Shown here piece by piece: positions 4,187 to 64,000 of a stretch of DNA of 64,000 bases (its first letter is position 1; each line of letters starts with the position of its first letter). A model generated the notes under the pieces. It had not been told where the DNA came from. It saw only the letters and a program-made list of their open reading frames with translations, and ran no database searches. Source of the stretch: Scenedesmus sp. PABB004 (Eukaryota); the NCBI GenBank assembly GCA_014905635.1, contig JABVCE010000018.1, positions 1 to 64,000 on the forward strand, read 5' to 3'. Made by a program: the position numbers and the translations under genes.

Positions 4187-4217
<31 letters not shown>

Positions 4218-6264: not shown

Positions 6265-6327
6265 GGGCCGGGGGGGTCCGCGGCCGGGCTTGCTGCGACC
6301 CCGGCTGGCTGCGTGTCGCGCCTCTTC

Positions 6328-22742: not shown

Positions 22743-23733
22743 ATGGCGGACTTCCACAACGCCGAGCCGCGCAGCCGGGAGGCTCGGCACGCTGCCCAGA
22801 ACAAGGACGTCCGCGAGCGGGGCTTCCTGCGCAACCGGCGGGGCGGGTACGCGCGGCCCGACGAGTGCTCCGGCAACCCACTGCAGCCCGAGCCGGGCAG
22901 CCCGCTCTACGCGGCGGAGGCAAACCGCTTCTACCGCGACGTCGCGGGCGAGCTGAAGGCGCAGAAGCAGCAAAAGGAGCGGCGCCAGCAGGTCCGCGCC
23001 GCGCAGCCGCGCGCTGCTGTCGCGGCGCCGGCGCCACGCGCCGCCAGCTCTGCCGCCGCCCCTGGCAGCTCTCCTAGCAGACGGCCAGCCGCGGGGGCTC
23101 GGCAGCGGCGGCCCATGGCCGCGCGCCGTGTCGCGCCGCCGCGCTGCGCGGTGTGCGCGCGCCGTCGCACGCCGCGCCCGCGCCGCCTCCAGGCCCGCCC
23201 GCTGCCGCGCCGACCCGGCGCCGCAGGAGCTGTACGACAGGAAGCGGCAGGAGGGGCTGGAGCGCGAGAGCGCGCGGTGGAAGGAGATTGACGCAGAGCG
23301 CGCGGCCGAGGCGGAGCGCATGGCGCACGTGCGCGAGGCCGGCACGCGCGGCAAGCAGAACAAGAGCAGCGAGCACTTCAACATCATCACCCTCAACTAC
23401 CACCCGACCAAGGAAGGCCAGCGGCTGCAGCAGAAGGCGCGGCGCTGCGGCGGCTGCGGCGCGGCTGGCCGCGGCCGCGGCGCGCGCAGCAGCGACCGGC
23501 CGCGGGCGCGCCGCCCGGCACGGCGCTCTGACGCTGCGTGGCGCGCGCCGCGCCCGCGCCCTGCCGCCCGCGGCGCCGCTGTGCAGGATGAGATGACGCG
23601 CTACCGCGCGGAGCTGCGCTCGCAAAACCTGTTCAACAAGAGCCACTCTGTGCCGCACAACATCATCACCGGCGAGGCGCGCAGCAACCCCGTGCGCCTG
23701 CCGGCCGCGCCGGCGCCGCCGCCGCTGCAGTAG
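22743..23733 (+). CDS. Uncharacterised coiled-coil protein with two NIIT motifs, possibly cilium-associated; 3 exons (22743-22991, 23227-23436, 23587-23733)
   Basis: Coherent spliced ORF with strong codon bias; one GT-AG and one GC-AG intron. The function is a guess. Confidence 0.7.
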
Positions 23734-23946
23734 CGACGCGTGCGCGCTCGCGCGCGCGCGCCTGGGGGCCTGCCGGCACGCGGCGCCGCAGCCGGCGCCG
23801 CTCGTTGCTGCGCGTCGCTGCGCGCTGGCAGGGGCGAGGGGCGCGGACGCGGCCCGCGAGGGGAGCGTGCACGGGGCGCGCGGGCGAGGGGCGCGAGGGG
23901 TGCGGGCGCGGGCGCGTTAACCAGGGCCGGCCGGTCAGCCGCCGGG

Positions 23947-25625
23947 TCAGCCGCCAGCCGCGCGGCCGCGCTTGCAGATGGCCTGCAGGTCTGACACAAA
24001 GTTGCCGATTGTGTCCAGCTGCTGCAGCGGGTGCGTCTCCGGCGGGTGCGCAATGTGCGACCGCTGGCGGCAGCGGTTGAACACGTTGTCGGCCGCCAGC
24101 ACCACCTGGCCGTGCTCCAGCGTGCGCTGCGACGCCACGCGCAGGCTGTAGTCCTTCTGCAGCTCCTGCGGCGGCGCGACCCGAGGCACGCGCGCGAGGC
24201 GCGTGGGCGCGCGGGCGGCAGCGGCGTCCGGCGCTGGCTGCCGCCGCAGCAACGCGCCGCAGGCTGTCGCCGCCCCACCGCCGCCGCCGCCGTCTGCCGG
24301 CCGCCGCCGCTGCTGCCGGCCGCCGCCGCTGCTGCCGCCGCTGAGGCTGACGCTGCCGCGGCTGCCGGCGGCCACCGCCCGCTGCCGGCCGCCGCCGCTG
24401 CCGCCGGCTGCTGGCCGCGCTGCGGGCCGCCCGCCGGGCCGCCGCCGCGCGCACCTGCTGTGCTGCCTGGCCCTCGATCTCCTCCAGCCGCTGCTTGAGG
24501 TGCGCGAGGCGGTTGGTGAGGCGCAGCACCTCGTCGCGCCGCGCCTTGGTGAGCGCCGTCAGCGACGCGCGCAGCGCCTCCGCCTCGGCCGCCGACGCCT
24601 GCTGGTGGCGCCGCAGGTCGTCGTTGGTGGCCTGCAGCGTGGCGTGGCGGGCGAGCAGGTCCGGCACCTCCTGGTACTCGTCGGCCACCTCCAGCACGCC
24701 CTCGAGGTAGCGCCGGTACCTGCACGGCGCGCGGGCGGGGAGGCGGGGCCGCGCGGGGAGGCAGGGCCGCGGCCGCGGCGGCACGGGCGCGGGCGCGCAG
24801 TCGCGGGCGCGCAGTCGCGGGCGCGCAGTCGCGGGCGCGGGCGCGGGCGCGGGCGCGCGGCGTGCCGCCGCCGGGCGCGCTGCCAGCCCCCCTGGCCCTC
24901 CCCTGCCCGGCCACGCGCGCGCCGCCGCGGCCCCGCCCCCGCGCCCGCGCGCGGGGCTCACTGGCTGTAGCGCTCCAGCACGTCGCCCACGCGCTCCCGC
25001 TCCTCCCGCAGCTGCTCGAGCGTGTCGGTGAGCGTCTCAATCTCCCGCTCCTTGCCCTGCCGGCAGCGCACCTCGTCGGCCGCCTTCTTGTCGGCGCGCG
25101 CGCGCTTGGAGTCGTTCTCCTGCAGGAACTTGCTGAAGCGGATGAGGCTCTCCTGCAGCTCCAGGTCCTTCTTCTTCAGGCCCTCCTCGCGCCGCCGGAA
25201 CGCCTCCTCCTGCAGCGGCGGCGGCGGCGGCGACAGCGGCGCGGCAGCAACGCTGGGGCGGCGATAGAACGGGGACGCCTGGGGCCGGAGGGGCGCGCGG
25301 CGCGCGCCGGCGCGGCGCGGGGCGCGCCAGCGCGGAGGGCGCGCCTTGCGCGCAAACTCCTGCTTCTGCAGCTCCAGCGCCTCCTGCACCTCGAACATCT
25401 GCCGCCGCTTTTCCAGCAGCCGCGTGGAGGGCGACGCGTTCTCCAGCACGCACCGCCGCGCCGCGCCGGGGCTGCGCGCGACAGCAGCGCCGCGCCCGCG
25501 CAGCCGGGCGGGCGTCGTGCCGCGGCTGCGCCGCGCCGGCAGGGCGCCGCGCCGGCGCCGCCAGCGCTGCAGCGCGAGCCCCACCTGGCGCCGGCGCCGG
25601 CGTGCGCCGCCAGCTCGCCGGCCAT
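23947..25625 (-). CDS. CFAP73: CFAP73/CCDC42-family (DUF4200) flagellar coiled-coil protein, 5 exons
   Basis: SPSTRLLEKRRQMFEVQEALELQKQEF and LQESLIRFSKFLQENDSKRARA are characteristic of the family. Splice phases are consistent. Confidence 0.85.
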
Positions 25626-25697
25626 GGCCGCTGAGCGCGCGGCGCTGCTGAGCGGCGGCCCTGCTGCGTTGACCTGCAGGGGGGCGGCCGCCCGGGT

Positions 25698-25762
25698 GGG
25701 CGGCGGTGGCGGCGGTGGCGGCGGTGGTGGCGGCGGCGGTGGTGGCGGCGGCGGTGGTGGCG
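25698..25762. repeat. (GGC/GGT)n trinucleotide tract between the divergent CFAP73 and RPB10 genes
   Basis: Directly visible. Confidence 0.85.
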
Positions 25763-25983
25763 GAGCGAGGTGTGGGGCGGCGCACGTGCGAGCGCGGCGC
25801 AGGGCGGCGGCAGCTCGCCGGGCGCGACCAGCGGGCTTCGCCTGCCTGGCCCTGCGCGGCGTTCAGCAGCCCCGCCCGCCTCCGGGGCGCGCTCACTGCC
25901 ACGCGACGCGACGCTCGCTGTCTCCGGCCTGCAAGCGCCCGCGCTCGCGGCCTGTTCCGGCGCCCCAGGCGCGGCGCGGCGCG

Positions 25984-26547
25984 ATGATCATCCCCGTGCG
26001 CTGCTTCACCTGCGGCAAGGTGAGCTCCCGCGACCGCGCGGCGCGCCGCTGACCTCGGCGCGCGATGGGCGGCGCGGGGGCGGCGGCTGATGGATGTCGC
26101 CGGCCGCCGCAGGTCATTGGCAACAAGTGGGACACCTACCTGGACCTGCTGCAGGCCGAGTACGAGGAGGGGTGAGCGCACAGCGGCCCACAGCGGCCAG
26201 GCGGCGCGCGGGGCCGCCTGCGGGCGACGGCTCGAGCGGCCGGCGGCCGCCGCCGCTGCTGCCATCGCCGCTGCTCGCGGCGGCGCGCCGGCCGGCGGGC
26301 TCCACGAGGGCGCCAGCACGCCGCGTCCCGCCGCCAGCAGCCTCGCCAGAACGGGCAGCGGCAGCGGTCGCCGGGCGCCGACCGCGGCGTCGCCCTGCCC
26401 CGCCTTGCGCCGCCACGCCCCCGCAGCGAGGCGCTGGACGCGCTGGGCCTGACGCGCTACTGCTGCCGGCGCATGGTGATGACGCACGTGGACCTGATCG
26501 AGAAGCTGCTGAACTACAACACGCTGGAGCGCGCCGAGGAGCACTGA
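25984..26547 (+). CDS. RPB10: DNA-directed RNA polymerases I/II/III shared subunit RPABC5, 3 exons
   Basis: [25 protein letters not shown]...[29 protein letters not shown]. Confidence 0.97.
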
Positions 26548-34383: not shown

Positions 34384-34442
<59 letters not shown>

Positions 34443-34960: not shown

Positions 34961-35133
34961 GCAGCAGCCCCCGCAGCGCGGCGGCCCGCGCGCCCCCGCC
35001 GCGAGGCGGGGCGCCGGGCGGCGCCGGCGCGGCGCCGCGCGCGGTGCGTGAGGGAGGCAGGTGGTCTTGTGACGACAACAGGTGGCTGGCTGTGGCTGCG
35101 CGGCCTGCAGGCCCGCCGCGCTGAGCCCTCCGC

Positions 35134-36402: not shown

Positions 36403-36833
36403 TCCATGGGCTGCTGCACGCGCGCTGCTGCAGCGCCAGCCGCGCGCGGCGAGGGGGAGACGGCGGCGGGAACGGCGGCGGCGCCTGCGCCTTGCGCTTG
36501 CGGGCCCCCCGTGGCGGGGCGGCTGCTTGATCCGCCTGGCCGGCGCAGCTCCATGTTACAGGCCGCCCGCGCCGGGGCTCCGCCGCCGCTGTGCCCCGCC
36601 GCCCGTGCTGACCAGCGCGATCCTTGCGCGGCACCCACGCACGCACACGACAATCAGTGGCTGCCTACCTAGCGCACCTAACTCAGCCTCGGTCGATGCG
36701 TGCAACGCCCTGCCGGCCTACTTTGCAGCAAGCGGCCCCCTCTGTGCTGGCCCCGTGCTGCGCGCCCCCACGTCAGCCCTGCTCTTCAGGTCGCAGGCCC
36801 CCACCCCCAGCCGCCCCTGCCGCGCCGCCCCGC

Positions 36834-39800
36834 TCAGCCCAGCAGGCCCTTGAACAGGCCGCCCTTCTTCTTGCGCCCGCCGCCGCCCGCCTCGTCGCCC
36901 TCCAGCAGCGTGGGCGACGTGAGGTCGGGCATGCGCCGCAGGTCGACCGCCGCCGCGCCCCCGGCGCCGCCGCTGTCGGCGCTGCTGCCCGGCGCGCGCG
37001 CGCCGAGCGCCACCGCCGGCGGCGGCGCCGCGGGGAGCGCGCCGACGCTGACCGCCTTGACCGCGTACGGCCCGCCGCCGCCCGCGGCGGCGCTGCGGCG
37101 CAGCGCGGCCTGCGCGTCGCGCATGCGCTCCCTGAACTGCCGGTTCCAGGCCTCGTACTTTTGGCGCAGGCGGTCGAGCTCGAGCTGGACCTGCATGTCG
37201 GGCGCGTCCGCGTCGCCGGAGAGCACCTCGGTGATGAACGCGGCGTCGTCGTCAAACAGCGGCGCCTTGGCGCCCCAGTCGGCCGCGAGGCCCGACACCG
37301 CGGCCGACCCGCGCGGGCTGCCGCCGGCGCCGGGCTTGCGCGGCCCGGCGGCGACGCGGGCAGCGGCAGGTGCGGCAGCCCGCCCGCGTGGCCGGGCATC
37401 TTGGCGCGCAGCGAGTCGATGTACTCCTTGAGCAGCTTGACCTGCCCCATCCACTCCACCGCCTGCTGCTCCAGCTGCTTCGCGTACTTGCTGCGCGCCG
37501 CCTTCTCCGCCTCGAGCTGCGCCGTCAGCGCCGCGACCGCGGCGCCGTCGCCCGGCGCGTCGCCCGGGCCGGCGCCGCGGCCCGCGGCCGCGTGGCCGGC
37601 GGCGAGGCCGCCGCGGCTCGCGGCGAGCACCGCCGCGAGGTCGCCCGGGTCGCCGAGGCCCTCGTCGCGCGCGACGCCCGCGAGCGTGACCGCGGCGTGG
37701 AGGTCCTCCGGGTCCAGGATGCCCTCCTCGCGCACCGCGCTGTACATGGCCACCGCGAGGCGCAGCTCGCCCGCGCTGGTGATGCCGTCCTCGCGCAGCA
37801 CGCCGTACAGCGCGGCCGCGGCCATGAAGTCGCGCTTGTCGGCGATGCCGTGCGCGCCCGCGGCGGCGTACATGGAGCACGCGCGGCGCGCGGCGCGCGG
37901 GTCAAACGCGTGCCCGTCCTTGCGCAGGTGCCGGAACGTGCTCAGCGCGACCGCGAGCTCGGTCGGGTCGGTCACGCCCTGCGCGACCGCGACGCTCCCC
38001 AGCGCCGCCGCCTCGCCGTCGGCGGCGGCGGCGGCGGCGCCGGGCTCGCCGCGCGCGGCCGCGCCGCCGCTCGCGACCGCCGCGGCGGTCGCGGCCGCGG
38101 CGGCCGACGCGAGCGCCGCGTGCAGGCCGGCCGCGTCGGCGATGCCCTCGTCCTCCGCGGCCGCCTGCAGGCGCAGCGCGGCGGAGACCTGCTCCGCCGA
38201 CACGTGCCCCGCGCCCTCCTGCACCGCCGACGACAGCGCGAGCGCCTCGGCCACGACCTCGGGGCTCGCCGCGCCCGCCGCGGCGGCCGCGAGCTTGAGC
38301 GCGTGCCCCAGCGCGCCCGCGCTCGCCACGCCCGCGGCGGCCGCCGCCTCGCCGAGCTGCAGCGCCTCGCGCAGCCGCGCCGGCTCGGGCGCGCCGCCGA
38401 GCTGCTGCCGCGCGACGCCTGCGAGCGCCAGGCTCTGCTGCAGCGGCGCGAGCTCGCACGACCCGAGCTGCTCCTGCACCGCCTTGGCCGCCGCCAGCGC
38501 CTCGCGCAGCCGCGCCTCGCTGCACGCGAGCCCCAGCTCCGCCTGCACCACCGCCGCCGTGCTCAGCGCCTCGCCGACCTGCTCCGGCGGCACGTCGCCC
38601 AGCTGCCGCTGCACCGCCGCCGCCGCGCCCAGCGCCGCGGCGACCCGGCCCGCGTCGGCGTCGCCGAGCTGCTGCTGCACCGCCGCCGCGTTGGCGAGCG
38701 CGCCGCGCAGCGCCGCCTCGCTGAAGTCGGCGCCCAGCGCCTCGCGGACGGCCGCCGTGGTCGACAGCGCCGCCGCGACCTCGTCGCCGCGTGCGCCCTT
38801 GGCGGCCGCGCCCACGCTCAGCGCGGCCGCCACCGCCGCGGCGTCGCAGCTGCCCAGCGCCTGCTCGCACGCCCGCCCCGCCGCGAGCGTCGCCGCCACG
38901 GCCGCGGGGTCGGCGCTGCCGAGCGCCTGCCGGCACGCCTCGCCCGCCGCGAGCGCGGCCGCGACGTCGCCCGGCGCCGCGCCGCTCCCCAGCGCGCCCG
39001 TCGCGGCGCCCGCGAGCGCGAGCGCGCGGCTGAGCTCCTCCGCGTCCGGCGCGCGCCCGCCCGGCGCCGCCGCGCGCGCGGCGGCGAGCAGGCGCAGCGC
39101 CGCGCGCAGCTCGTCGAGGTCGGCGGCGCCGAGCTCCGCCTTGAGCGTGCCGTACTGCGCCAGCGCGGCGCGCACCTCCTCCGGCTCGGTCACGCCGTAC
39201 TGCGCCTTCAGCGCCTCAAACGCCGCCTCGCGCTTGCGCGCCTCCTCCGCCGCCGCGCGCTCCGCCGCCTCGCGCGCCGTGCGCACCGCGACGCGCGCCG
39301 CGACGCGCTTGTTCAGCTGGCGCCGCCGCTCGGCGGCCTGCAGCACGCTGACCGCGCGCAGCTCGCGCTTGTACGCCGCGCGCGCGGCGGCGCCGCGCGC
39401 GTGGCGCTGGATGGTCAGCGCGGCCTTGTGCTGCGCGAGGTCGCGCGCGTAGCACAGCCGCGCGCCGCGCCCGCGCCAGCCCGACTGCAGCGCCAGCGCG
39501 GCGTTGCGCTGGCGGCGGTACGCGGAGCGCGCCCAGTGCATGCGCATGTACGCCTGCAGGCGCAGCGCGCTGCTGTGCATCTTGGCCCACGTGTCCTCCA
39601 CGTACCCCAGCACGCCTGCCGCGACGGGACGGGTGCGGGTGCGGGTGTGGGGCGGCGCGCGCGGGTCAGCCGGGCGCGCCACGCCGCGCGGCGCCGCGCG
39701 CTGCCCCTGCCCCGCCCGCCTCGTCCCCGCCGCCGCCGCGGGCCGCCTCCCTCCCTCCCTCGCGCGCGCACCGGGCTTGAAGAACACCTTGGTGCGCCCG

Positions 39801-42800
39801 AGCTCGTAGTGCCCGCGCGGCACGCGGAACGTGCCGAGCAGCTGCACCACCGACGCGACCGCGTCGCCGCCGCGCGCCGCGAGGCCCTGCTGCTCCGGCG
39901 GCAGCAGCACCTCGTAGCGCGCGACAAAGTCGGCGTGGCGGTAGCGCGTGGGGAAGCCGGCGCGCGACACGCGCGCGACCTCGAGCACGCCGCAGCAGCG
40001 CAGCTGCTGCAGCACCAGGTCGCGCGTGAACGCGCCGGGCGCGAGGCTGGCGTTGGGCTTGATGCAGCGCACAAAGTGCAGCCCCGTCGCGTCCAGCATG
40101 GCCACGAGCTCGCGCAGCTGCTGCGTGAAGCGGCTCGACACCGTCTGCCCGCCGCGCTTGCCCTCCATCTCCTCCGCCTGCGCGCCGCCGATCGCCGACA
40201 CGAGCGGCGAGGCCGAGCTTTCCATCAGCTCCACCAGGTCTGGGCGTGGTGCGGCGCGGCGCGCGGCGCGCGGCGCGGCACGGCGGGTGGGCGGGGGCGC
40301 GGGGTGGGGCGCCAGCGCGCGGCGCCTGTGCGGCGGCCGCGCCGCGCCGCCGCGCCGCGCCGCCGGCCCTGCTCGCTCCCTCCGCCCGCGCCAGCCCCCC
40401 CCCCCCCCCCCGGTGCGTGCGTGTGCGCAGCGCGCTGGCGCGCAGCTGCGCAGCGCGCGTGCGCTGGCGCGCACCCGTGTTGAGCATGTCCTTGTTTTTG
40501 TCGAGGAAGCCGGCCACGTTGTAGGCGACGGGGCCGGCGTAGTGGGTGACGTAAAACTCCTCGGGCGTGCGCGGGTGCGTGCCAAAGTGGTCGTTGCCGT
40601 CAAGCGCGTCGCGCAGCGCGTGCATGAACGTCTCGTCGCTGCCTTTGGGGAAGCGGCACTGGCTGTCGAGCACCGCGAGCACGCCCAGCCCGCGCGGCGG
40701 CATCGCCTCGATCACGTCCACGCACGCCTGGTTGTCAACCCACTCCACCTGCGCGCCCCAGGCGCGGCGGCGGGCGTGGCGGCGGCCGCGTCAGGCGCGG
40801 GGCGGCCGCGTCAGGCGCGGCGGGCGCGGAGTGGGCGCGCGGAGCGGGGTGCGGGCGGCGGGGCGGGGCGCGCGCGCCTTGGTCCAGTCGATGCCCTCGC
40901 TCTCATACTCCTCCTGCTCCAGCGTGAAGAGGTGCCGCGTGAACTGCTGCTGCAGGCGCTCGTTGGCGTAGTTGATGCACAGCTGCTCAAAGCTGCGCGC
41001 GCGCGCGGCGGCGGCGCGGGCGCGGGCGGCGGCGCGGGCGCGCCTCAGCCCCCGCCGCCATGGCCGCGGCCGCTCGCTCGCGCCCGCGCCGCGGTCGCGC
41101 GCCGCCGCGCGCCGCGGGCGCGTCGCGCGCGCCTGTTTGTTGTGAACTGCTCAAAGCCGTAGATGTCGAGGATCGCGATGAACCGCCCGCTCGCCTTCTT
41201 GCCCATGTCGAGCTTGGCGTTGATCGCGGCGACGACCCAGTTGAAGACGCCGCTGTAGAGCGCCTTGGCCAGCGCGTCGCGCGCCTCGGCCGCCTCCTGC
41301 GCGGTGAGGGGCTTGACGATGAGCTCGTCCCGCGTCTTGATCTGCGCAGGGCGGCGGCGGCGCGCGAGGGGAGGAGGGGAGTGAGGGGACGGGGAGTGAG
41401 CGCAGGGGAGTGAGAAAGTGGCGGCGGCGCGGAGAGCGAGAGGCGAGGCGCGCGAGGGCCGCGGTGCGCCGGGCCGCGCCTTTTTGTGCGTGATGGCGTG
41501 CGCGAGGGCCTTGGCCTCCAGGCCGAGCAGCGCGGCGGCGTTGTTCAGCGCGGCGTCGGCCTTGACGCGGCTGCTGTCGTCGGCGTGCACCGCCTCGAGG
41601 CGCAGGTTGCCGAGCCAGAGGATGCCCGAGAGCGTGGCGAGGAGGCGCTGCAGCTCGTCGGGGGTGAGCCCGATGTCGGTCAGCGCGGCGCAGACCTCAC
41701 GGAAGTTGGCCGCGTCGTCGATGCCGTCGATGTCCTGCGCGCGCGCGTGTGTGTGTGTGTGTGTGTGGTGAGTGTGTGAGGGTGGGAGGGGAGGGGAGCA
41801 GGCGACCAGGCGCCCCTGCCCCGACGGCGCGCGGCGCGCGCGCGCCGCCCGCGCCCCCGCGCGCGTGCGCACCGTGCAGCCGCTCTTGGAGAGGTAGGCA
41901 AAGTCTGTCGGCTTGGCGGGCAGGCGCAGCGCCTCGCGCGCCGCCTTGTCGCGCGTGCCGCGCACGAGCTGGTAGAAGATGTGGTAGCTGCGCTCGCCCT
42001 TGAGCTGCCGCACCTGGGGGGTTGGGTGGGGGAGGTGGTTTAGCTTTCAAGGGCGGGGGAGCTGAGGCGAGGGGCGCGCGCGCTGCTGCTGCCCGCCGCC
42101 GCGCTGCCGCACCACGCGGCTCTTCTCCAGCAGGTAGGTGCGGATGCGCGCGCCGCAGATGTGGTTGGTCTTGTTGAAGTGGATCTCGATCAGCTTGCCA
42201 AAGCGGCTGCTGTTGTGGTTGCGCAGCGTCTTGGCGTTGCCAAACGCCTCCAGGATGGGGTTGGTCTGCGCGCGACGCGCGCGCCGCGGCGGCGCTCGGC
42301 GTGCGGGCGGCGGCGCCGCCCCCGCCGCCCCTGCCGCCGCTGCTGGCTCGTGCCGCTGCTGCCACTGCTGCCGCCGCCGCTGCTGCCGATGCTGCCGCTG
42401 CCGCTGCCGCCGCCCGCCAGCTCCCCGGCCGCGCCCGCGTCGGCGGCCGCCGTCGCCTCACCTCAAGCACCTGCCCCTCCACGCCCGTGCCGCCCGCGAG
42501 CGCGGCGAAGAACTGCATCGCCTTCTTGGTCGTCTCGGTCTTGCCCGCGCCGCTCTCGCCGTTGATGACGAGCGACTGGCTGCTGCCCTGGCGCACCATG
42601 TCGCGGAACGCCGCGCCCGCGACGAGGTAGATGTGCGGCGCGAGCTGGTTCACCGCCTCAAACGCGCCCGCTGCGGCGCGCGGCGGGCGGCGCGGAGCAG
42701 CCGGGGCGGCCGTCGGCCGCCGCGCCGGCCCGGCCGCCGCCCCGCTGCGGGCGGCGGCAGCAGCTGCTCGGCGCGGCGGCAGTGCGCCCACGCACCCTTG

Positions 42801-43171
42801 TACGCGTCTGCGACGTCGTCTGTGTAGAGGGGCAGGTTCCTGCAAGGGTTGACTGCGATGAGCACGGGGCCGGCGTTGGTGTAGATGTTGTCGCCGGCGT
42901 AGCGGCGGGCCAGGTTCTCCAGGATGCTCGGCTCGTTGAGGTACGAGAGCTGCGTGAGGTCCGCGATCGCGGCCTGCAGCTCGGGGTTGGCCGGCGCGAG
43001 CGCGGCGGGGTCGACGCCGTCGATCGCCTTGCCGGGCGCGCCGGTCAGCAGGCTCACGCCCAGCCGCCCGTCGCCGCCCGTGTCCCGGATCTCCGCGAGC
43101 AGCCATGTCGCAGCGTCGGCTCGGTACCACACGCGCGAGCCCTTCTGCAGGGCCAGCACGCCGTCGTCCAT
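36834..43171 (-). CDS. Myosin, class VIII-like: SH3-like N-terminus, motor, 3-4 IQ motifs, long repeat tail and class VIII C-terminal domain; about 10 exons
   Basis: PANP...[57 protein letters not shown] and QLRCCGVLE. The C-terminal [11 protein letters not shown]...[12 protein letters not shown] resembles plant myosin VIII. Apparent frameshift near 37340. Confidence 0.92.
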
Positions 43172-49351: not shown

Positions 49352-51469
49352 ATGGCGCCCTCGAGCCAGGCGCAGCCGGCGTGGCTGGGCGGCGCGTGGC
49401 AGCTGGCGCCGGCGGCGCAGCGCCCGCGCGGCGGCGGCGCCGGAACGCTGCACGCGCGGCCGCCGGGCGCGCTGCTGCTCGCGCACATCCACTCCTCCGT
49501 GGCGCAGCGCCAGAACCAGAACCAGCGGCAGCAGCAGCAGCAGCAGCAGCACGCGCCGCCGTGGGCGTGGCCGTGGGCGGCGCCGCCGAGCGGCGGCGGC
49601 GCCGCGCCGCCCGCGGCGCCGCTCGCCGGCGCGACGTTTTGCGAGGCCGGCAGCCGCCTCCGCAGCCCAGACGCAGCCCCCTGCAACCAGGTGGCCACGC
49701 TGGCGCTGGTCCCCGAGGGCAGCGGCTCGGGCGGGCAGCAGGCGGACCGCGCCGGGCAGGCGCAGAAGCCGGGCGCCCCGCAGTGGCAGCAGGCGCAGCA
49801 GGCGCAGCAGCAGCAGGCCCAGCTGCAGCAGCAGCTGCAGCAGCAGCGGCGGCCAGGCGCGCCGCCGCCGCCGCCGGGGGCGGCCACGAGCGCCGCCGGC
49901 GGCGGCCAGCAGCAGCACGACGGGGGCGGCTCGCCGCTGCCGCCGCCGGGGCTGCGCGCGCTGGGGCGCGCCATCAACGGCGAGGCGGGCAAGCTGCTGG
50001 GCCTGGTTGGCGCGCAGCTGCTGATGCACTTTGCCAACCTCCAGCGCGGCATGGCCGCGCTGCAGCAGCAGCAGCTCGACGGCGCGGCAGACGGCGCGCA
50101 GCAGGCGCAGCGCGCCCCCGCCGGCTGGCGGCCGCGCATGCCGTGGCAGCGCCAGCCGCCGGGCGGCGACGCGGGCGGCAAGGCGGCGGCGGCCGGCGGC
50201 GGCGCCGCGTGGCAGGCGAGCGAGGCGGTGCGGCAGTGGGTCGCGCGCGGCATCGCGGCCGAGGCGCAGATGGACCTGCGCGGCGCGCTCGCGTGCTACA
50301 CCAACGCCGTCACGCTCGCGCCGGGCGACGCGGAGCTGCTCTGCCGCCTCGCGAAGCAGTGGAGCGACCTCACGTACGAGGAGGGCGCGAGCGTGGAGCA
50401 GATCCAGGAGGTCAACGCCAAGGCCGTGGAGTACGCGGAGCGCGCGATCACGCTCGCGCCCAAGGCGCGCCGCTGCGGCGGGGCACGCGCGCGCCAGGGG
50501 GGGGGGGCACCGCCAGGGGCGGGGCGGGCGGCGCGTGCTGGCAGCGCAGGGGGGCGCCGGTCGCGCGGCTGCCACAGCGCGGCGGCAGCCTGGCCGACCC
50601 TCCGCTGCCGCCGCCGCCGCCGCCGCACAGTCTGCGGGCGGCTACATGGCGAGCTGCGTGAGCCGCGGCCGCCTGGCGCTGCTGAGCGACAACAAGACCA
50701 AGGTCCGGCTCGCCAAGGAGGCGCAGGAGGCGGCACGCACCGCGCTCGCGATGGAGCCGGGCAACGACCTCGCGCACCACCTCATGGGCCGCTGGCACTA
50801 CGAGATGGCGCAGATCAACTTTGTCGTGCGCCAGCTCATCCGCCTCGTCTACGGCGCCGCGCTCGCGCCGGGGCGGTTCGAGGACGCGCTGTCAGAGTTC
50901 TCCGCCGCGGTGTCGCTCAACCCGAACAAGCTCATCCACAGGCGCGCGCGGCGGCGTGCGCGGCGGCGCGGCAGCGCGGCAGCGCGGCGCCGCGGCGGCG
51001 CGGCAGCGCGGCAGCGCGGCGCCACGGCGCCGCGGCGCGTAGCAGCAGCAGCCGCCGCCGCGCGGGGCGCGCATCGAGCGCGCGGCCGCCGCTGTTGCGC
51101 CGCCCGCGCAGGGTTGAGCTGGGGCGCACGCACCTGCGGCTGGGCCACCGGCGCGAGGCGTACGAGCAGCTGGTCGCGAGCACGCGGCTGCCGGTGGAGG
51201 ACGTGAATGCGAAGCTGCAGCTCGAGGACGCGCAGCTGCTGCTGGACAAGCTGCGCAAGGAGGGCATCGAAAAGGAGGTCGCCAAGGCCGCCGCCGCCAG
51301 CAGGGACGGCAGCGCCGCCGGCGCGGCCGCGGACTTCCAGGCGGCCGTCGCCTGGGGCAGCCTCGGCAGCAGCGCCAGCGGCAGCACGCACGCGGGCGAG
51401 GCGGGCGCTGGCAGCAGCATCAGCGGCGGCGGCAGCAGCAGCAGCAGCAGCGCCGGCGGCGGCGCGTAG
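49352..51469 (+). CDS. TPR-like protein of the RMDN/FAM82 type with a long Gln/Ala-rich N-terminus, 3 exons
   Basis: ELLCRLAK...AVEYAERA, NKTKVRLA...ALAMEPGNDLAHHLMGRWHYEMA...LIRLVYG. Both introns are GC-AG. Confidence 0.75.
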   Translation: MAPSSQAQPAWLGGAWQLAPAAQRPRGGGAGTLHARPPGALLLAHIHSSVAQRQNQNQRQQQQQQQHAPPWAWPWAAPPSGGGAAPPAAPLAGATFCEAGSRLRSPDAAPCNQVATLALVPEGSGSGGQQADRAGQAQKPGAPQWQQAQQAQQQQAQLQQQLQQQRRPGAPPPPPGAATSAAGGGQQQHDGGGSPLPPPGLRALGRAINGEAGKLLGLVGAQLLMHFANLQRGMAALQQQQLDGAADGAQQAQRAPAGWRPRMPWQRQPPGGDAGGKAAAAGGGAAWQASEAVRQWVARGIAAEAQMDLRGALACYTNAVTLAPGDAELLCRLAKQWSDLTYEEGASVEQIQEVNAKAVEYAERAITLAPKARRCGGARARQGGGAPPGAGRAARAGSAGGRRSRGCHSAAAAWPTLRCRRRRRRTVCGRLHGELREPRPPGAAERQQDQGPARQGGAGGGTHRARDGAGQRPRAPPHGPLALRDGADQLCRAPAHPPRLRRRARAGAVRGRAVRVLRRGVAQPEQAHPQARAAACAAARQRGSAAPRRRGSAAARRHGAAARSSSSRRRAGRASSARPPLLRRPRRVELGRTHLRLGHRREAYEQLVASTRLPVEDVNAKLQLEDAQLLLDKLRKEGIEKEVAKAAAASRDGSAAGAAADFQAAVAWGSLGSSASGSTHAGEAGAGSSISGGGSSSSSSAGGGA

Positions 51470-54538: not shown

Positions 54539-54576
<38 letters not shown>

Positions 54577-55728: not shown

Positions 55729-57216
55729 ATGGCCGGAGATCGGGACGCCCGCGCCAAGGCGGAGGCCAAGGAAGCAGGTGCGGCCGGCAGCGGCGGCGGC
55801 AGCGGGCGGCGGCAGCGGGCGGCGGCAGCGGGCGGCGGCAGCGGCGGCAGCGGGCGTGGCGCCGCGCGCTGCGCCGGCGCGGCGCTGCGCCTGCGCAGCC
55901 AGCTGAGCGCCGCCGGCGCGGCCCGCGCGCGCAGCCAAGGCCGCGAAGCGCGCGGAGCAGAAGGCCAAGCGCCTGGCCAAGGAGGCGGCCAAGGCCGCCA
56001 CGGGCGGGAGCGCGGGCGGCTCGCTCGCGGGCGACGACACGTCCGACCAGGACGCCGGCGGCGGCGGCGCCGCCGCGTCGGCGCTCGCGGCGTCGGCGAG
56101 CGCGCTGAGCCTGGGCAAGAGCGCGAGCGCCGCCGCGCTGGGCGGCGGCGAGGAGGAGCACGGGCGCTCGACGACGGGCGTGCTCGCGAGCCACCCGCAG
56201 AGCCGGGACATTCAGATCGACTCCTTCACGCTCCTCTTCCACGGCCACGAGCTGCTCGCCGACACGCGGCTCGAGCTCAACTACGGCCGCCGCTACGGCC
56301 TGCTCGGCCTCAACGGCTGCGGCAAGTCGTGCATGCTGCAGGTCCGTGCGCGGGGGCGCAGGCGCACGCGCACGCGCGCGCGGCGTTCGGCGGCGCGGCC
56401 GCCCGCCGACGCGCCGCCGCCGCCTTCCTGCCCTGCCCGCGCGCCAGGCGCTGGCGCAGCGCGAGGTGCCCATCCCGGAGCACATCGACATGTATCTCCT
56501 GGACAAGGAGATCGCGGCGAGCGACAAGACGGCGCTGCAGGCGCGGCGGGCGCCGGCGGGCGCGGCGGGCGCGCCTCGGCGGGCGCGCCTCGGCGGGCGC
56601 GCCTCGCCGCGCGCGGCAGGCGCCGACGCCCCCGCCGCCGGCGCCGCCGCCGCCCGTCCAGGCTGTGATGGAGGTGGACCAGGAGAAGGTGCGGCTGGAG
56701 GCAGAGGCGGAGGTGCTGGCAGAGGCGGAGATGACGCCCGAGGTCGAGGCGCGCCTGGTGCGCGCGCGGCGGCGGCGGCCGGGCAGGCGCAGCGGCGCGC
56801 GGCGGCTGGCCCCGGCTGCAGCTGCTGCGGCGGCCGCGAGCGGCGCGGCTGCAGGCGGGGCGCCGACGCGGCCGCCCGCCCGCGCGCCCGCCCGCGCGGC
56901 GGTGCAGGCGGACGTGTATGAGCGCCTCGACGCGCTCGACAGCGACACGACCGAGGCGCGCGCCGCGTCCATCCTGCACGGCCTCGGCTTTGACAAGGAG
57001 ATGCAGGCGCGCCCGCGGCGGGGGCCGCCGCACGCTCTGCGCAGCGCCGGCCGCCCCGCGCGCCCCCCGCCGCGCAGCGTCTGAGAGCCGCCGCGCCGCG
57101 CCGCGCCGCGCCGCGCCGCGCGTCGCGTCGCGCAGCGCAAGAAGACGCGCGAGTTCAGCGGCGGCTGGCGCATGCGCATCGCGCTCGCGCGCGCGCTGTT
57201 CCTGGAGCCCACCTTC

Positions 57217-57253
<37 letters not shown>

Positions 57254-59286
57254 AGGCCTGCGTGTGGCTGGAGGACTACCTCTCAAAGTTCAAGCGCATC
57301 CTGCTCATGGTCTCGCACAGGCACGGCGCCGCGCCCGCGCCGCGCCGCGCCGCGAGCCCCCACGCGCAGCCGTCGCGCACCGCCCGCGCGCGCCGCGGAC
57401 GCCCCCGCGCGCGCCGCGGACGCCCCCGCGCGCGCCGCCGACCCCCGCGCCGCGCGCCGCCGCCCGCGCAGCCAGGACTTTCTCAACGGCGTGTGCACCA
57501 ACATCATCCACATGCACAAGAAGTCGTTGCAGTACTACAGCGGCAACTACGACAGCTATGTTCAAACTCGCGCGGAGCTGGAGGAGAACCAGATGAAGCG
57601 GTACAAGTGGGAGCAGGAGCAGATCGGGCACATGAAGGCGCGTCGGCGCCGCCCCGTGGGGCGGCGCGAGGCGCCGCCGCCTCGCCGCAGCGCACGGCGC
57701 GCACGGCGCGCGGCCGCGCGCGCGCCCTCCGCGCGCCGCCGCCGCCGGCCGCCGGCGGACGGCCGACGGCCGTGCCGCACGCCTGCGTGTCGTCGCGCAG
57801 GAGTACATCGCGCGCTTTGGCCACGGCTCGGCCAAGCTCGCGCGGCAGGCGCAGTCCAAGGAGAAGACGCTGGAGAAGATGGTCCGCAGCGGCCTCACCG
57901 AGCGCGTGGAGACGGACCGCGTCGTGAAGCTGCGCTTTGAGAACGTCGGCAAGCTGCCCCCGCCGGTGCTGCAGTTCTCGGGCGTCGCGTTTGGCTACAG
58001 CCCCGACAAGGTCCTGTACAGGTGAGACACAGCAGGCGCAGAGAGAGGGAGAGCGTGGCCCGCCGGCGGCCGCGCGGCGGCACCGGCCGCGTCCCTCGTG
58101 CTGGCGGCCGACACCGCGCCGCGCGCGCGCAGGAACGTCGACCTCGGCGTCGACCTGGACAGCCGCGTCGCGATCGTGGGCGCCAACGGGACGGGCAAGT
58201 CGACGCTGCTCAAGCTCATGACCGGCGCGCTGGAGCCGCTGGACGGCATGGTCAAGCGCCACAACCACCTGCGCATCGGCGTCTACCACCAGCACCTCGT
58301 GCGACCACCGCCCCGCGCCGCGCCGCCAGCCCCGCGCGCCCACTGCCAGCGCCCCGCGCGCGCGCTGCCAGCGCCCACGCCCGCCCGTGCCCACGCCCGC
58401 CGCGCCGCGCGCAGACGGAGCTGCTCGACCCGGACATGACGCCGCTGGAGTACATGATGCGTGAGTACAAGGACATCCCCCTGGAGAAGATGCGCAGCGT
58501 GGTGCGCCACGCGCCCACGCGCGGCGCCGCACGCCCGCGAGCGGGCGGGGCCGAGGGCGGCGCGGCGGCGCGCGGCTGAGAGCGCGCCCCGCGCCGCCGC
58601 GCCTGCGTCGTCCGCGTCGCAGATCGGCCGCTTTGGCATCACAGGTGCGGCGCAGACGCTGAGGATCCGGCACCTCTCGGACGGCCTCAAGAGCCGCGTC
58701 GTGTTCTCGTGGCTCGCGCAGCGCACGCCGCACATGCTGCTGCTGGACGAGCCGACGAATCACCTCGGTGCGTTTGGCCGCGCCGCGCCGCGCCGCGCCG
58801 CACCCGCGCTGACGGCGCCGCCGACCGCTGCTCGCGCGCGGGGCCGGCCGCAGACATCGAGACCATCGACTCGCTCGCGCGCGCCATCAACGGCGCGTGG
58901 CCACGCGCGGGGCGCGCCGCGCCTGCGCTGCCGCCCGCCCGCCGCCGCCCGCCCGCCGACCGGACCCGCCCGCCCCGCTGCGGCGCGCGCAGACTGGGAC
59001 GGCGGGCTGGTCCTGGTGAGCCACGACTTCCGGCTGATCAGCCAGGTCGCCAACGAGATCTGGGAGGTGCGCGACGGCGGCGTGCACGTGTGGAAGGGCG
59101 ACATCGTGGCCTACAAGAAGCACCTCAAGGGCTCGCTGGTGCGCCGCAGCCGCGGCTGCGCGGCTGCGCGCAGGGGCACGGCGCCGCGGCTGCGCGCGCC
59201 GGCCGACCCCCGTCGCCCGCGCCCGCCGGCCGCCGCGCGTCGCGCGCGCGCAGGAGGCGCTGCAGAAGCGCAAGGACCTCGCCTAG
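55729..59286 (+). CDS. ABCF2: ABC-F family ATPase (ABCF2/Arb1-like), 14 exons
   Basis: [56 protein letters not shown] and LSDGLKSR; no transmembrane domains. Confidence 0.95.
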
Positions 59287-59862
59287 CGGCCGGCGGGCTC
59301 GTTGCTGACGCTGCAGCGGGGCGCCCCGCTGCAGCTGGTGTTGCGCGCTCCGTCGCGCCCTCGTCCCCTGTACAAGAGCGTGTCCCGAGTGTCCAGAGAG
59401 AGGTCGTGCGAGCGAGCGGGGCGGCGGCGGGGAGGGGCGGGGCGGGCGGCGGCGTTGGGCGACGGTCGTCACCGGCCGCGCGGGGGGCCGCCGGGCGGCG
59501 CGTTTTGGTTGCTGCTCTGCGCCGACGGGGAAGGAGCGTTGCGCCCAGCTTCTGAACAGCCGGGCCGCCGGTCAACGTAACGGCGCCCGCCGCCGCTGTC
59601 CGCGGCTTAGCTTCTCCCTGCGCCCGCCCGGCACCTCGGCGCCCGGCTGACGCTTGCCGCTCGAGAGCACGCCCGGCCCGAATCCCCAAGCGGAGCGCGC
59701 CACCGGGCGGCGCAGCAGCAGCGGACCGCCATCTCGCTCCCGGCCGCGGCCATGCGCCGCCGCGCCGGCCCCTGGACGGGGCCACGCGCCCAGAGGTGAC
59801 GTGCCTGACGCGCTCGGTTGCGAGCAGCCCCCTGACGGGCGCCCGCGCACGCAGCAGCGGCG

Positions 59863-62800
59863 ATGGCGCCATCGCCGCCCGCTGGCTCGCTGGCGCCGCC
59901 CGCGGCGCCGCGCCGGGCTCCGAGCAGCACCAGCGCCAAGGAGACGGTCAAGTACAAGTCCTACAGCAAGACGGAGGACGGCCTGCTCACAGCCAAGGCA
60001 GGGCGGCGGGGGCGCGCGCCCGGGCGCCGCCGTCGCTGGCTGCGCGCCGCGCGCGACTGCTCACAGCTGCCGCCGCCGCTGGCTGCAGTGGGCGCCGAGC
60101 CAGCTCCTGGCCGACCTGCAGCAGCCAACCCTGCACGCGGAGGGCTGGCGCCCCAAGCCGCAGGTGCTGGAGCTGCTCAACATCTCCGAGCACAGCCACC
60201 AGGCGCGCGCAGACTGCGCGCGCGCCGCCAGCGGCCGCATCAGCAGCTGCGCCAGCGCCAGTCGCTCCCGCGCCGTGCTACGCGGCGGGGCAGCCGCGGC
60301 GACGCGCACGCCCCGGCGCCCGCCGCCGCCCGCAGGTCGCGAGCAGCGTGGCCGTGGGCGAGCCGCTGTTCCAGCCCTCGCCGCCCGAGGTGGTGTTCCA
60401 CTCCTACGAGCCGTTCTGCCAGTGCGAGGCGACGCTGCGCCTGCGCAACAACGACAAGGTGCGGCGCCGCCGCCGCCCGGCGCGCGCGCGCGCGCGCTCG
60501 CGCCTGGCCGCACGCGACGCACGCACGCACGTGCGCGCGCGCCGTCGCTGCCGCGGCCAGGTGGCTCGCCGCGTCGCGGTGGAGGCGCTGGACAGCAGCT
60601 GCTTCCGCGTGTCGCGCGTGCCCGCGCCGGGGCAGGCGGTCGGCGGCAAGGTCGCGGCGGGCATGGAGGCGGTCTTCCGCGTAACCTTCACGCCCGACAG
60701 CGCCGGCAGCGCCGAGGCGGCGCTCGTCGTCGCCACGGAGCGGGAGCGCTTCGCGGTGCCGCTGCTCGCCATCGGCGCCGCGCCCGCGCTGGACCTGCCC
60801 GACGCGCTCGCGCTGCCGGCGGTCGGAGCCAAGCAGACGGCCACGCAGGCGCTGCTCGTCACCAACGTCGGCCGCGCGGCCGGCGGCTTCAGCTTTGCCG
60901 CCGCCGGCGCGGCGTTTGCGGTCGCGCCGGCGCGCGGCAGCCTCGCGCCGGGCGAGGCGCTGCAGCTGAGCCTCACCTTCACGCCGCCGTGCCCCGGCGA
61001 GCACGCGGGCGAGCTGCAGGTGTGCTACGACAACAGCCGCGCCACGTTCACGGCGCTGCGCGGGACGGGGCTCGCGCTGGACGTCGGGCTGTCGGAGGCG
61101 GCCGTGACCTTCCTGCCCACCAACATGGGCCGGCTCAGCCAGCGCACCGTGCGCGTGATCAACGCCAGCGACGTCGCGGTCGCGTTCAGCGTCCGCGCGC
61201 GGCCCAGCGCCGAGGCAGAGGCGGCGGCCACGCGTGCCGCGCTCGTGGCGGCGCAGCGCGTGGCGCCGTCAGGCGGCGGCGCGGCAGCGGCGCGGGGGCT
61301 GGCGAGCATTGGCGGCGGCCTGTGCGCGAGCCGCGCGGGCAGCCAGGCGCCGGTGCAGCTGCGCGCGTGGAGCATCGCGGCGGCGGCGGCCGACGAGGAG
61401 CTGGAGCTGCTGGAGTCTGAGCGCAGCGGCGCCAGCGCGGGCAGCAGCCAGTCGCAGCGGCAGCCGGAAGCGCAGCAGTCCCAGTCGCGCTGCAGCACGG
61501 CCGCCAGCGACGCGTCGAGCGCCGCCGATGCGTCGCTGCTGCTGGACGACGGCGTGCTCGCCGCGGCGCGCGCGGCCACGCGCGCGCGGCGCGAGCTGCT
61601 GGCCGACCGTCAGCTGTTTGCGACGCCCCACTTCAGCGCGTTCCCGCCCGAGGGCGTGGTGCACCCGCGCAGCGAGGCCGAGGTGGTGCTCCAGTTTGCG
61701 CCCGACTGCGCGGGCGAGTTTGGGGCCACCGCCTGGGTTGAGCTGCAGGGCGCGGGCGACCGCCTGCCGCTCGCGCTGGCGGGGCGCGGGCTGGGCGCGG
61801 TCGTCGCGTTTGCGTGCGACGTGCTCGACGTCGGCGGCGCCTTTGTCAACACGCAGCACGTCTACGAGGCGGAGCTGATGAACCGGGGCAAGGTCGACGC
61901 GGACTGGGCCCTCGCGCCCTGCCACACGCGCTTCGGCAGCAAGTTTGCGTTCACGCCGTCCGCCGGGCTGCTCGCGCCGGGCGCGACCGAGGTCATCCGC
62001 GCGTCGCTGCTCAGCGACGCGCTGGGCGCGTTTGACGAGTCGTTCCAGCTGCACCTGCGCGGCGGCGGGCCGCCGGTCGCGCTGACCATCCGTGGCCATG
62101 TGGTGGGGCCGCAGTTCTCCCTGGACGCCGCGGGGCTCGACTTTGGCGTCATGGCGTTTGGCTTCAGGCGCGGCGCGGCGCGCACGCCTCGGGGCAGCCG
62201 CGCGCCGCCTGCCGGGTGTCGCGCGCCGCCCCCGCCGCGCGCCCCCGGCGCGCCGAGCGCCCTGGCGGGCGCCGCCGCCTCGCGCGGCACCGCAGGTACT
62301 GCCGCGAGCTCGTGCTGACCAACACAGGCGCCATCCCGCTCGCGTTTGCGTGGCGCCTCGGCGACGAGGCCGGCCCCGGCGCGCGCGGCGACGTCGCCGT
62401 GCTGCCGCCGCGCGGCACGGTGCTGCCGCACGCGTTGCAGGCCGTGCGCGTCGAGTTCACGCCGTCGTGCGTGCAGCGCTACGCGCTCGTGCTGGCCATG
62501 GACATCCCTGGTGTCGGCGCGGGGGCGGCGGTGCTGCCGCTCACGGGCGAGTGCGCGGTGCCGCTCATCTGCCTGCCGCCCAGCGGGGAGCTGCTGGAGT
62601 ATGGGCAGGTCTACGTGCGCCACCGTTACGAGCGCACGTTCACGCTGGTCAACGACAGCAAGCTGCCAGCCAAGTTTGAGGTGCTGCCGCAGGTGAGCCC
62701 CCGAGCAGCGCGCCCGGCCGCTCCCACGCGCGCCTGTGCGCGCACGCGCTCGGCCTCGGCCGCGGGCGCGGGCGCCGCCGCACGCACACCCCGCCGCCGC

Positions 62801-64000
62801 GCCGCCGTGTGCCGCCGCGCCGCGCAGGACCAGCAGAGCCAGGCGCTGGCTGTGTACACGGCGGCCCCCGCGGCGGCGACCATCCCCGCCAAGGGCAGCG
62901 TGGCGGTGACGCTGGCGCTGGAGGCGGAGCGGCTGGGCCGGCTGCAGCTGCCCGTGTACGTGCGCGTCGCGGGCAGCCGCAACAAGCCGCTGCAGCTGGT
63001 CGCGGACGCCAGGGCGGTGGGGCCGTCGCTGGAGTTTGCGCTGCCGCCGCCTGCCGCAGCCGCGCCGCAGCAGCAGCAGGAGCAGCCCGACGCGTCGCTG
63101 GCGGGCGCGACCGCGGCGGCCGCGCCGGCGGCGGCGGCGGCGCCCGGCGACGGCTGCACCAGCGGCAGCGTCAGCGCAGGTGAGCCGACGGCGGCGGCAG
63201 CAGGCGCGGCGGATGCCAGCGGCAACGGCGCGGCGCCGCCGGCAGCGGCGGAGAGCGCTGTTGCCTCGGCCGGCAGCGGTGGGCCCGACGGCACGGCCGC
63301 GCTGCTGGCAGAGGAGAGCACCATCAGCCACGCTGCCAGCGTGGCCAGCACCAGCAGCAGAGCCAGGGGCGCTGGCAGGCGCGGGGGCCGGCCCAAGGCC
63401 AGCCGCGCGGGAGGCAAGCCGCCGGGGCCGCCGCCGCTCGAGTGGGCGGCGGGCGCGGCGATCGCGTGGGGCAAGGTCGAGGTGCTGCAGCCGCACGCGC
63501 GCGAGCTGCGGCTGCGCAACCCCACACCCGTCGATGCGCTGGTCAAGCTCTTTGTGGAGGGTCGCGACTCGGTGTTCGAGGTGCGGCCAGCGGACGAGGC
63601 GGCACGTTGTGGCGGGGCGGCGGCGCCGGTGCAGCCGCGCCAGCTCATGCCGCGCGCTGCCGGCGCAGGTGGAGCCGCGCGAGGTGGTGGTGCCGGCGAG
63701 CGGCGAGGCGTCTGTGGTCGTCAGCGTGCTGCTGGACGACACGGCCACGTTCCGGGACGTGCTGCACGCGCTGGTGGCGGAGGGCGCGGACGTCAACATC
63801 CCGCTGGAGGCGACAGGCGAGCGCCGGCGCGCACCGCTGCGGGCAGGGCTCACCAGCAGCGGCAGCTGCGCGGCGCGCTGAGCCCTGGGCTCGGCGTGCT
63901 GCCCGCCGCCGCCGCAGGGATCGGCAGCACGCTGGTGTCGGAGGTGCTGTCCCGCCCCGCGTTGGACTTTGGCGCGCAGTTTGTGGGCCGCCCGTGGCAG
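59863..64000 (+). CDS. HYDIN: HYDIN central-pair protein, 5' part (continues beyond the window)
   Basis: PLFQPSPPEVVF...LRLRNNDKVARRV, KVAAGME...VTFTPD and TERERFAVPL, followed by tandem ASH/Ig-like domains. Confidence 0.88.

Follow-up and report, generated by a model that had tools for sequence, protein, structure and literature searches.

Abundant GC-AG introns in a 64-kb stretch of extremely GC-rich green algal DNA

On average, introns that begin with GC and end with AG make up about 1.2-1.3% of all introns (PMC6310983; PMC3033335), but some algae depart far from this value. Transcript-supported shares of 39.6% in Aureococcus anophagefferens, 22.2% in Micromonas pusilla and 7.7% in Chlorella sp. 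were reported and tied to G+C content (Iwata & Gotoh 2011, PMC3033335), pelagophytes have 14-17% (bioRxiv 10.1101/2024.10.30.620910) and in Emiliania huxleyi about 60% of the donors are GC, as verified by reverse transcription PCR (RT-PCR) (Feldmesser et al. 2014, PMC4028052). Here, we describe GC-AG introns in the first 64,000 nucleotides (the window) of contig JABVCE010000018.1 of Scenedesmus sp. PABB004. As judged by the conservation of the encoded proteins, their borders and their abundance in the window are real.

Annotation-based counts of major non-canonical introns (GC-AG plus AT-AC) gave 5.7% for Chlorella sorokiniana, 7.0% for Micractinium and 5.6% for M. pusilla; in Monoraphidium neglectum such introns number 19 among 67,746 (PMC6310983). 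The near-zero count in Monoraphidium is probably a limit of the gene finder, and annotation-based GC-AG counts in related algae are probably underestimates that result from GT-AG-only prediction. In the literature on GC-AG introns in green algae we found no comparable rate for Chlorophyceae, although subscription papers or supplements may hold one.

The window resembles the GC-rich algal sets of PMC3033335 in its high G+C content (70-80% all along, and so at least 65%), a GC-AG share an order of magnitude above 1%, an unchanged AG acceptor and intron lengths that do not differ between the two donor classes. The source of the window is a green alga, as are M. pusilla and Chlorella sp. With E. 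huxleyi it shares a large proportion of GC donors and about 100% AG acceptors, for which the authors held the genomic G+C content of 65% responsible; they also found that GT-only predictors mis-annotate such genes (PMC4028052). However, E. huxleyi is a haptophyte with GC as the majority donor, whereas GT is still the majority in the window, and its introns were proven by RNA sequencing, expressed sequence tags and RT-PCR, whereas the borders in the window are predicted from protein conservation. Ostreococcus lucimarinus, a GC-rich chlorophyte with the donor GTGCGTG (Irimia & Roy 2008, PMC2483917), has the GTGCG(TG) core as well as C at -5 and R at -4 of the acceptor in common with the window, but it is intron-poor with rigid signals, and the accessible part of that paper mentions no GC-AG excess. 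Both the abundance of GC-AG and the GTGCG donor core have precedent in algae. The novelty lies in the host, which belongs to an intron-rich lineage of Chlorophyceae (Sphaeropleales-like) and not to the intron-poor GC-rich picoalgae, and in the degree: 77% G+C overall, 88% in introns, and 41% GC-AG in a sample that comes from one window and from protein conservation.

GC-AG introns in conserved genes

Since GC dinucleotides are ubiquitous in this DNA, hand-drawn borders were not relied on. Instead, all donor/acceptor pairs between neighbouring homology cores were spliced in silico in an exhaustive scan free of any dinucleotide constraint, and the translations were scored against the closest homologue. 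In this way 29 introns were pinned, 13 in a gene for an ABCF-type ATPase, nine in the motor domain of a myosin, five in HYDIN and two in an RMD1-like gene. Six more were read by eye from translated frames and PDB alignments (three in CFAP73, two in RPB10, one in HYDIN). Nine junctions with homologues too diverged or of low complexity had been left out before counting: four in the myosin (q917-946, q1349-1382 and q1404-1440 in the tail, and one without a solution), three in HYDIN (q11-56, read by eye afterwards, q344-386 and q787-817) and two in the N-terminal part of the RMD1-like protein (q51-73, q91-126).

The scan yielded 17 GT-AG and 12 GC-AG introns, a GC-AG share of 41% (95% confidence interval 24-61%); with the introns read by eye it is 14 of 35 (40%). 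The share exceeds a rate of 2% (p=1.5e-13), and nominally the share is also above the 22.2% of M. pusilla (p=0.016). An initial annotation made from the letters of the DNA had put GC donors at about one intron in four (18 of some 70, 26%); the abundance stands, with a higher share among the pinned introns. All 18 GC donors listed there do start with G-C on their strand, all follow a G and 16 follow AG, and 14 were confirmed, 12 by the scan and two by eye (25344 and 59998). The count of five GC donors among 13 introns in ABCF was exact. For HYDIN, where four of seven had been claimed, three GC and three GT donors were recovered, the fourth claimed GC donor (63817) has its acceptor past the window end, and two further gaps are present. 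The junctions said to be fixed by conserved motifs, VSH/SQDFL, N/SFEQ, WTK/VEW and AIN/DWDGG (the slash marks the junction), all came out of the scan as GC-AG.

The canonical G(T/C)...AG pair was unique within the top-scoring set at 27 of the 29 junctions. The two exceptions, 58502 and 63581, are GT-AG introns at which this pair falls one point short of the best. Each GC-AG intron from the scan is the sole AG-ending solution that gives a protein 85-100% identical to the homologues from Tetradesmus or other organisms. At the ten sites marked in Table 1 the search range contains no GT-AG alternative at all, and GT-AG alternatives elsewhere are far worse, by 12-40 points (53 versus 93 at 57321 and 88 versus 104 at 57638). 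More distant HYDIN homologues returned identical canonical solutions at four sites (60459, 62168, 62693 and 63581). Every intron pinned by the scan terminates in CAG. The length is not a multiple of three in ten of the 14 GC introns, and the intron at 57007, with a length of 129, has an in-frame stop; these introns must therefore be removed and are not read through.

Should the whole genome show a similar rate, it would exceed every GC-AG share that we found for the green lineage. A gene finder confined to GT-AG would disrupt about 40% of the introns in this genome and wrongly predict most genes with several exons, as happened in the first gene models of Emiliania (PMC4028052).

Splice signals and the exon end

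Unless stated otherwise, signals were counted in 26 pinned introns (10 GC, 16 GT). Both classes share one donor core, with G at +3 in 24/26, C at +4 in 23/26 and G at +5 in 26/26, including all ten GC donors. The proposed G(T/C)GCG consensus holds: positions +3 to +5 read GCG in nine of ten GC donors and 12 of 16 GT donors, and the 14 GC donors of the larger set all start with GCGCG, GCACG or GCAGG. The acceptor is CGCAG in both classes (C-3 26/26, G-4 21/26, C-5 21/26), in agreement with the CGCGCAG-type acceptors described before. It is not preceded by a U-rich tract, as the interior of the introns has only 4.8% T besides 6.7% A, 48.5% C and 40.0% G (about 88% G+C), and the pyrimidine tract is a C tract. 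Mean lengths are 130 nucleotides for GT and 133 for GC introns. In many introns most of the sequence is made up of short GC-rich tandem repeats (period 8-64 nucleotides), for example at 57326-57469, 50951-51037, 40995-41043, 56563-56615, 58329-58406 and 59192-59249; repeat-filled introns have reportedly been described for E. huxleyi as well.

The two classes differ only in the end of the exon. The exonic AG precedes 13 of 14 GC donors but only nine of 21 GT donors (Fisher p=0.004), and in the scan alone 11 of 12 versus seven of 17 (p=0.008), which bears out the earlier observation that GC donors follow AG while GT donors tolerate weak exon ends. Seen from the other side, GC is used by 13 of 22 donors after AG and by one of 13 other donors. 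Plant and animal U2-type GC-AG introns have the same combination of GC with an AG acceptor, and there, too, other donor positions compensate. In the window they are about 30-fold more frequent and the intronic part is GCGCG, whereas typical GC donors have purine-rich +3 and +4 positions.

If position +2 were free to vary, the C:T ratio of the intron interiors would predict about 91% C donors. In fact, T is found at +2 in 17 of 29 donors (59%), compared with 9% of the pyrimidines in intron interiors, which is six-fold over the neutral expectation. Donors whose exon end is weak almost all hold on to T. Position +2 is therefore still read, with C apparently accepted chiefly where A at -2 and G at -1 contribute pairs. 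Further upstream, the commonest branch-like box is CCGAC, which 11 of the 26 introns have at 21-47 nucleotides from the acceptor, against an expectation of about 2.2 (P about 2e-5). CTGAC occurs in just three, as if C had taken the place of the U that precedes the purine and A in CTRAY, the usual box.

Counting donor motifs was dropped as a window-wide estimate of GC-AG introns. The motifs AG/GCRCG and G/GTRMG occur 29 and 67 times in sense and 31 and 53 times in antisense, so that the strands are not distinguished, and the usage of 11/17 and 14/23 motifs in the resolved parts of genes is not to be over-read.

Compositional pressure as the probable cause, and its rivals

In our view these are probably ordinary major-spliceosome (U2-type) introns, among which GC-ward pressure made GC-AG accumulate with conventional small nuclear RNAs (snRNAs). 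Strong substitution pressure towards GC, be it mutation bias or GC-biased gene conversion, would have raised silent sites to about 96% G+C (third codon positions of ABCF are at 96.5%) and introns to about 88%. A change from T to C at +2 would be tolerated if the remaining 5' splice-site helix is strong, that is, with AG at the exon end, G at +1 and G at +5. GC-AG could then rise to about 40%, while donors with weak exon ends would stay GT. What the data show are the GC-AG borders, their frequency in the window, the link with the exonic AG and the composition, whereas splicing as drawn (deduced from the conserved proteins), the compositional cause and the conventional snRNAs are inferred.

GC-AG borders restore the reading frame in 12 introns by the scan and two by eye, and the donors have compensating strength, as is typical of U2-type GC-AG introns. 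None of the 14 GC donors has the U12-type box (consensus ATATCC for the donor and CCTTAAC for the branch site, as quoted in PMC3033335), and U12-type introns were rejected for this reason. The near confinement of GC donors to exons ending in AG is the compensation expected if C at +2 mismatches an ordinary U1. Over 34 introns, the predicted number of Watson-Crick pairs with the canonical U1 5' end (the 11-mer of PMC3033335) is similar in both classes, with means of 4.7 for GC and 5.25 for GT donors. The AG dependence is the classical signature of GC-AG introns, merely far more frequent here. From this dependence and the T retained at +2, we argue that U1 need not have changed at the base opposite +2. 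Adaptation of the spliceosome is not needed to explain the data. An Rfam search of the 64-kb window returned no RNA family, hence no snRNA gene, at threshold.

A comparison with other GC-rich DNA came from a metagenome scan with the Tetradesmus ABCF protein. It gave 22 loci, mostly intron-less or distant, and introns were found only in L016 (six) and L017 (one). The ABCF locus L016:6001-8143, on a 233-kb metagenome contig, has a G+C content of 75% (89% at third codon positions) and six short introns, all of them GT-AG (6/6). These introns have only 69% G+C, 20% T and CT-rich tracts, and their positions differ from those of the ABCF gene in the window. High coding G+C thus need not bring GC donors, and this fits a mechanism of compositional pressure.

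Some points weigh against this explanation. The sample comprises 29 introns from the scan (35 with those read by eye) in six conserved genes of one window, and the metagenome locus is a single gene of one contig and thus a weak comparator. G+C content alone fails to explain the rate: Micromonas RCC299 (64% G+C) has 2.7% GC-AG introns compared with 22% in M. pusilla at a similar G+C content (PMC3033335), and a lineage-specific factor may be needed. Finally, AG/GCGCG is a weak partner for canonical U1, with C mismatched at +2 and +4, which gives room for altered factors.

A rival, the idea of the initial annotation, is that the spliceosome itself changed, by a variant U1 5' end or an extra U1 paralogue, by altered U6 modification or by relaxed proofreading through U1C, LUC7 or PRP8, such that C at +2 and +4 is read as well as U or A. 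All three signals that depend on U have shifted to C: +2 in 41% of donors, the tracts that are nearly devoid of T, and the branch-like box. AG/GCGCG is predicted to form just 4-5 Watson-Crick pairs with canonical U1. For Micromonas, where G+C does not predict the GC-AG share, RNA modifications or U1 snRNP proteins were proposed by the authors (PMC3033335). On the other hand, the dependence on AG and the six-fold excess of T argue that +2 is read in the usual sense, and the putative U1 RNAs of Aureococcus and two Micromonas strains, among them the GC-AG-rich M. pusilla, carry the canonical 11-mer at their 5' end (PMC3033335). GTGCG-type donors also occur in Ostreococcus, and there a related preference could not be traced to the snRNAs (PMC2483917). 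A changed spliceosome therefore appears unlikely to us, although the evidence for conventional reading leaves room for changed protein factors or RNA modification.

It is tempting to go one step further and to speculate that, of the splicing codes so far seen in the green lineage, this one is the poorest in U: +2, the pyrimidine tract and the position two before the branch A would all have gone to C, the rare A at exon position -2 would have taken over the information, and the small nuclear ribonucleoproteins would have co-evolved (U1/U2 variants, or a specificity of U2AF or SF1 for C). We consider this decidedly unlikely; if true, GC-AG would be a second canonical donor class and not a tolerated mismatch.

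GC donors could also be maintained by selection and not by neutral drift, with their weakness put to use in regulated splicing, alternative splicing or intron retention. In human, nematode and Arabidopsis, genes with alternative splicing are enriched in them (PMC2490688), and E. huxleyi combines GC donors with high intron retention (PMC4028052). In the window, however, the genes concerned have housekeeping or structural roles (ABCF, myosin motor, HYDIN), and skipping or retention would break the frame in ten of 14 cases, and a share of about 40% tied to the exon-end AG suits tolerance better than regulation; selection for weak sites is thus very unlikely.

That the true introns are GT-AG or otherwise non-canonical, with borders misdrawn in stop-poor DNA of 77% G+C, is hardly credible and largely refuted: all six frames of the window do carry open frames (stop-to-stop), abundant GC dinucleotides invite over-calling by hand and four of the 18 claimed GC donors lack a homologue or a pinned acceptor, but the scan blind to dinucleotides placed GY-AG in its top set at 27 of 29 junctions and within one point at two, all the pinned introns end in CAG and GT donors in the same genes are normal. 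Assembly errors from T to C were rejected, as the identity of the exons to their Tetradesmus homologues reaches 93-100%.

If compositional pressure is indeed the cause, the window can serve as a natural experiment that shows to what extent such pressure erodes splice signals. The survival of T at +2 where pairing with the exon end is weak would quantify how far A at -2 and U at +2 are interchangeable in 5' splice-site recognition, and compensation at the 5' splice site can be studied in these donors as in a clean natural series. The main practical use is in the annotation of this genome.

Genes and repeats of the window

The DNA is gene-dense from about 22.7 kb, and the first 22 kb hold repeats and open reading frames (ORFs) of mobile elements. 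Pfam searches with stop-to-stop ORFs identified CFAP73/DUF4200, an fn3-repeat protein, an Era-like GTPase and the myosin on the minus strand, and RPB10, an amino-acid transporter, a cytochrome c heme lyase, the RMD1-3-like protein, the ABCF ATPase and the 5' part of HYDIN on the plus strand. The nearest named homologues are from Tetradesmus obliquus (ABCF OEZ86_006722, myosin OEZ86_006714). Since exons of ABCF and myosin are up to 100% identical to Tetradesmus proteins, the source of the window is, by protein similarity, a very GC-rich relative of Tetradesmus (Scenedesmaceae/Sphaeropleales); some members of the Sphaeropleales have more than 70% G+C (PMC12571836). The locus tags of the two T. 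obliquus homologues, 006714 and 006722, are eight apart on one 7.76-Mb contig, in synteny with 36776-43171 and 55729-59283 of the window.

Table 1 Introns, donors and their genes in the window (scan, exhaustive junction scan; by eye, translated frames and alignments; no GT-AG, no GT-AG candidate in the search range)
Feature	Position	Strand	Basis and remarks
ABCF-type ABC ATPase gene	55729..59283	+	14 exons, 13 introns (8 GT-AG, 5 GC-AG); tblastn and scan vs Tetradesmus obliquus protein P0001
ABCF intron 1, GT-AG	55778..55934	+	scan
ABCF intron 2, GT-AG	56342..56447	+	scan
ABCF intron 3, GC-AG (cag/GCGCGG)	56541..56661	+	scan; no GT-AG
ABCF intron 4, GT-AG	56758..56907	+	scan
ABCF intron 5, GC-AG	57007..57135	+	scan; no GT-AG; in-frame stop
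ABCF intron 6, GC-AG (VSH/SQDFL)	57321..57471	+	scan
ABCF intron 7, GC-AG	57638..57800	+	scan
ABCF intron 8, GT-AG	58022..58132	+	scan
ABCF intron 9, GT-AG	58299..58414	+	scan
ABCF intron 10, GT-AG	58502..58622	+	scan; one point under unconstrained best
ABCF intron 11, GT-AG	58768..58853	+	scan
ABCF intron 12, GC-AG (AIN/DWDGG)	58893..58992	+	scan; no GT-AG; only confirmed GC donor without preceding AG
ABCF intron 13, GT-AG	59139..59253	+	scan
Myosin gene	36776..43171	-	Pfam Myosin_head; scan vs Tetradesmus protein P0007; motor domain with 9 introns, 6 GT-AG and 3 GC-AG
Myosin intron, GT-AG	42671..42795	-	scan
Myosin intron, GT-AG	42266..42461	-	scan
Myosin intron, GT-AG	42014..42112	-	scan
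Myosin intron, GT-AG	41735..41872	-	scan
Myosin intron, GC-AG	41342..41479	-	scan; no GT-AG
Myosin intron, GC-AG (N/SFEQ)	40993..41132	-	scan; no GT-AG
Myosin intron, GC-AG (WTK/VEW)	40749..40877	-	scan; no GT-AG
Myosin intron, GT-AG	40240..40474	-	scan
Myosin intron, GT-AG	39616..39771	-	scan
HYDIN gene, 5' part, runs off window end	59544..64000	+	Pfam HYDIN/CFAP65 Ig domains; homologues P0048-P0050
HYDIN intron, GC-AG (aag/GCAGGG)	59998..60088	+	by eye, frames vs P0048 N-terminus
HYDIN intron, GC-AG	60203..60335	+	scan; no GT-AG
HYDIN intron, GT-AG	60459..60560	+	scan
HYDIN intron, GC-AG	62168..62295	+	scan; no GT-AG
HYDIN intron, GT-AG	62693..62827	+	scan
HYDIN intron, GT-AG	63581..63668	+	scan; one point under unconstrained best
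RMD1-3-like intron, GC-AG	50465..50630	+	scan vs P0054, P0056, P0057; no GT-AG
RMD1-3-like intron, GC-AG	50942..51111	+	scan vs P0054, P0056, P0057; no GT-AG
CFAP73 intron, GC-AG (aag/GCGCGC)	25210..25344	-	by eye; junction K/E vs Chlamydomonas chain 8glv_AV
CFAP73 intron, GT-AG (cca/GTGAGC)	24720..24961	-	by eye
CFAP73 intron, GT-AG	24166..24454	-	by eye; donor clear, acceptor less certain
RPB10 (RNA_pol_N) intron, GT-AG	26020..26112	+	by eye
RPB10 (RNA_pol_N) intron, GT-AG	26172..26426	+	by eye
Candidate GC donor, Era-like GTPase gene	35841	-	exon end ..AERQ plausible; acceptor not pinned
Candidate GC donor	23437	+	no homologue found
Candidate GC donor	46228	-	no homologue found; follows GG, not AG
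Candidate GC donor, HYDIN	63817	+	acceptor beyond window end

For the genes around the candidate donors 23437 and 46228, Pfam at E<=1 gave nothing usable, and a PDB search with the CFAP73 ORF 23604-25175 (minus strand) gave no match. The gene for the Era-like GTPase (35137-36555, minus strand) lies nearly all in one frame, with at least one candidate intron that is open in frame; it is an example of how introns may be hidden in stop-poor DNA. CFAP73, on the minus strand, and RPB10, on the plus strand, form a head-to-head pair (25345-25984), with about 0.5 kb between the first recognisable residues of CFAP73 and the ATG of RPB10 at 25984.

Among the repeats and ORFs of the first 22 kb are two ORFs with an RVT_1 domain, a copia-like integrase, a satellite that occurs twice and a long tandem repeat. 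The satellite, with a unit of 171-172 bp, forms arrays at 4955-6264 (7.5 copies) and 16507-17558 (6.1 copies) with 98-99% matches, and each array is within a few kb of a reverse-transcriptase ORF (1318-3252, minus strand; 12020-15304, plus strand). This suggests a composite element of satellite and reverse transcriptase that is present twice, in opposite orientation. The tandem repeat at 6392-9100 has a period of about 656 bp and at least four copies that are 98-100% identical, with degenerate copies to about 10250, and it coincides with a strong AT skew (-0.39) at 4001-8000. The ORF 18320-20158 (plus strand) combines a Pol beta-barrel, a GAG-pre-integrase and an integrase core domain and is a fragment of a Ty1/copia-type retroelement.

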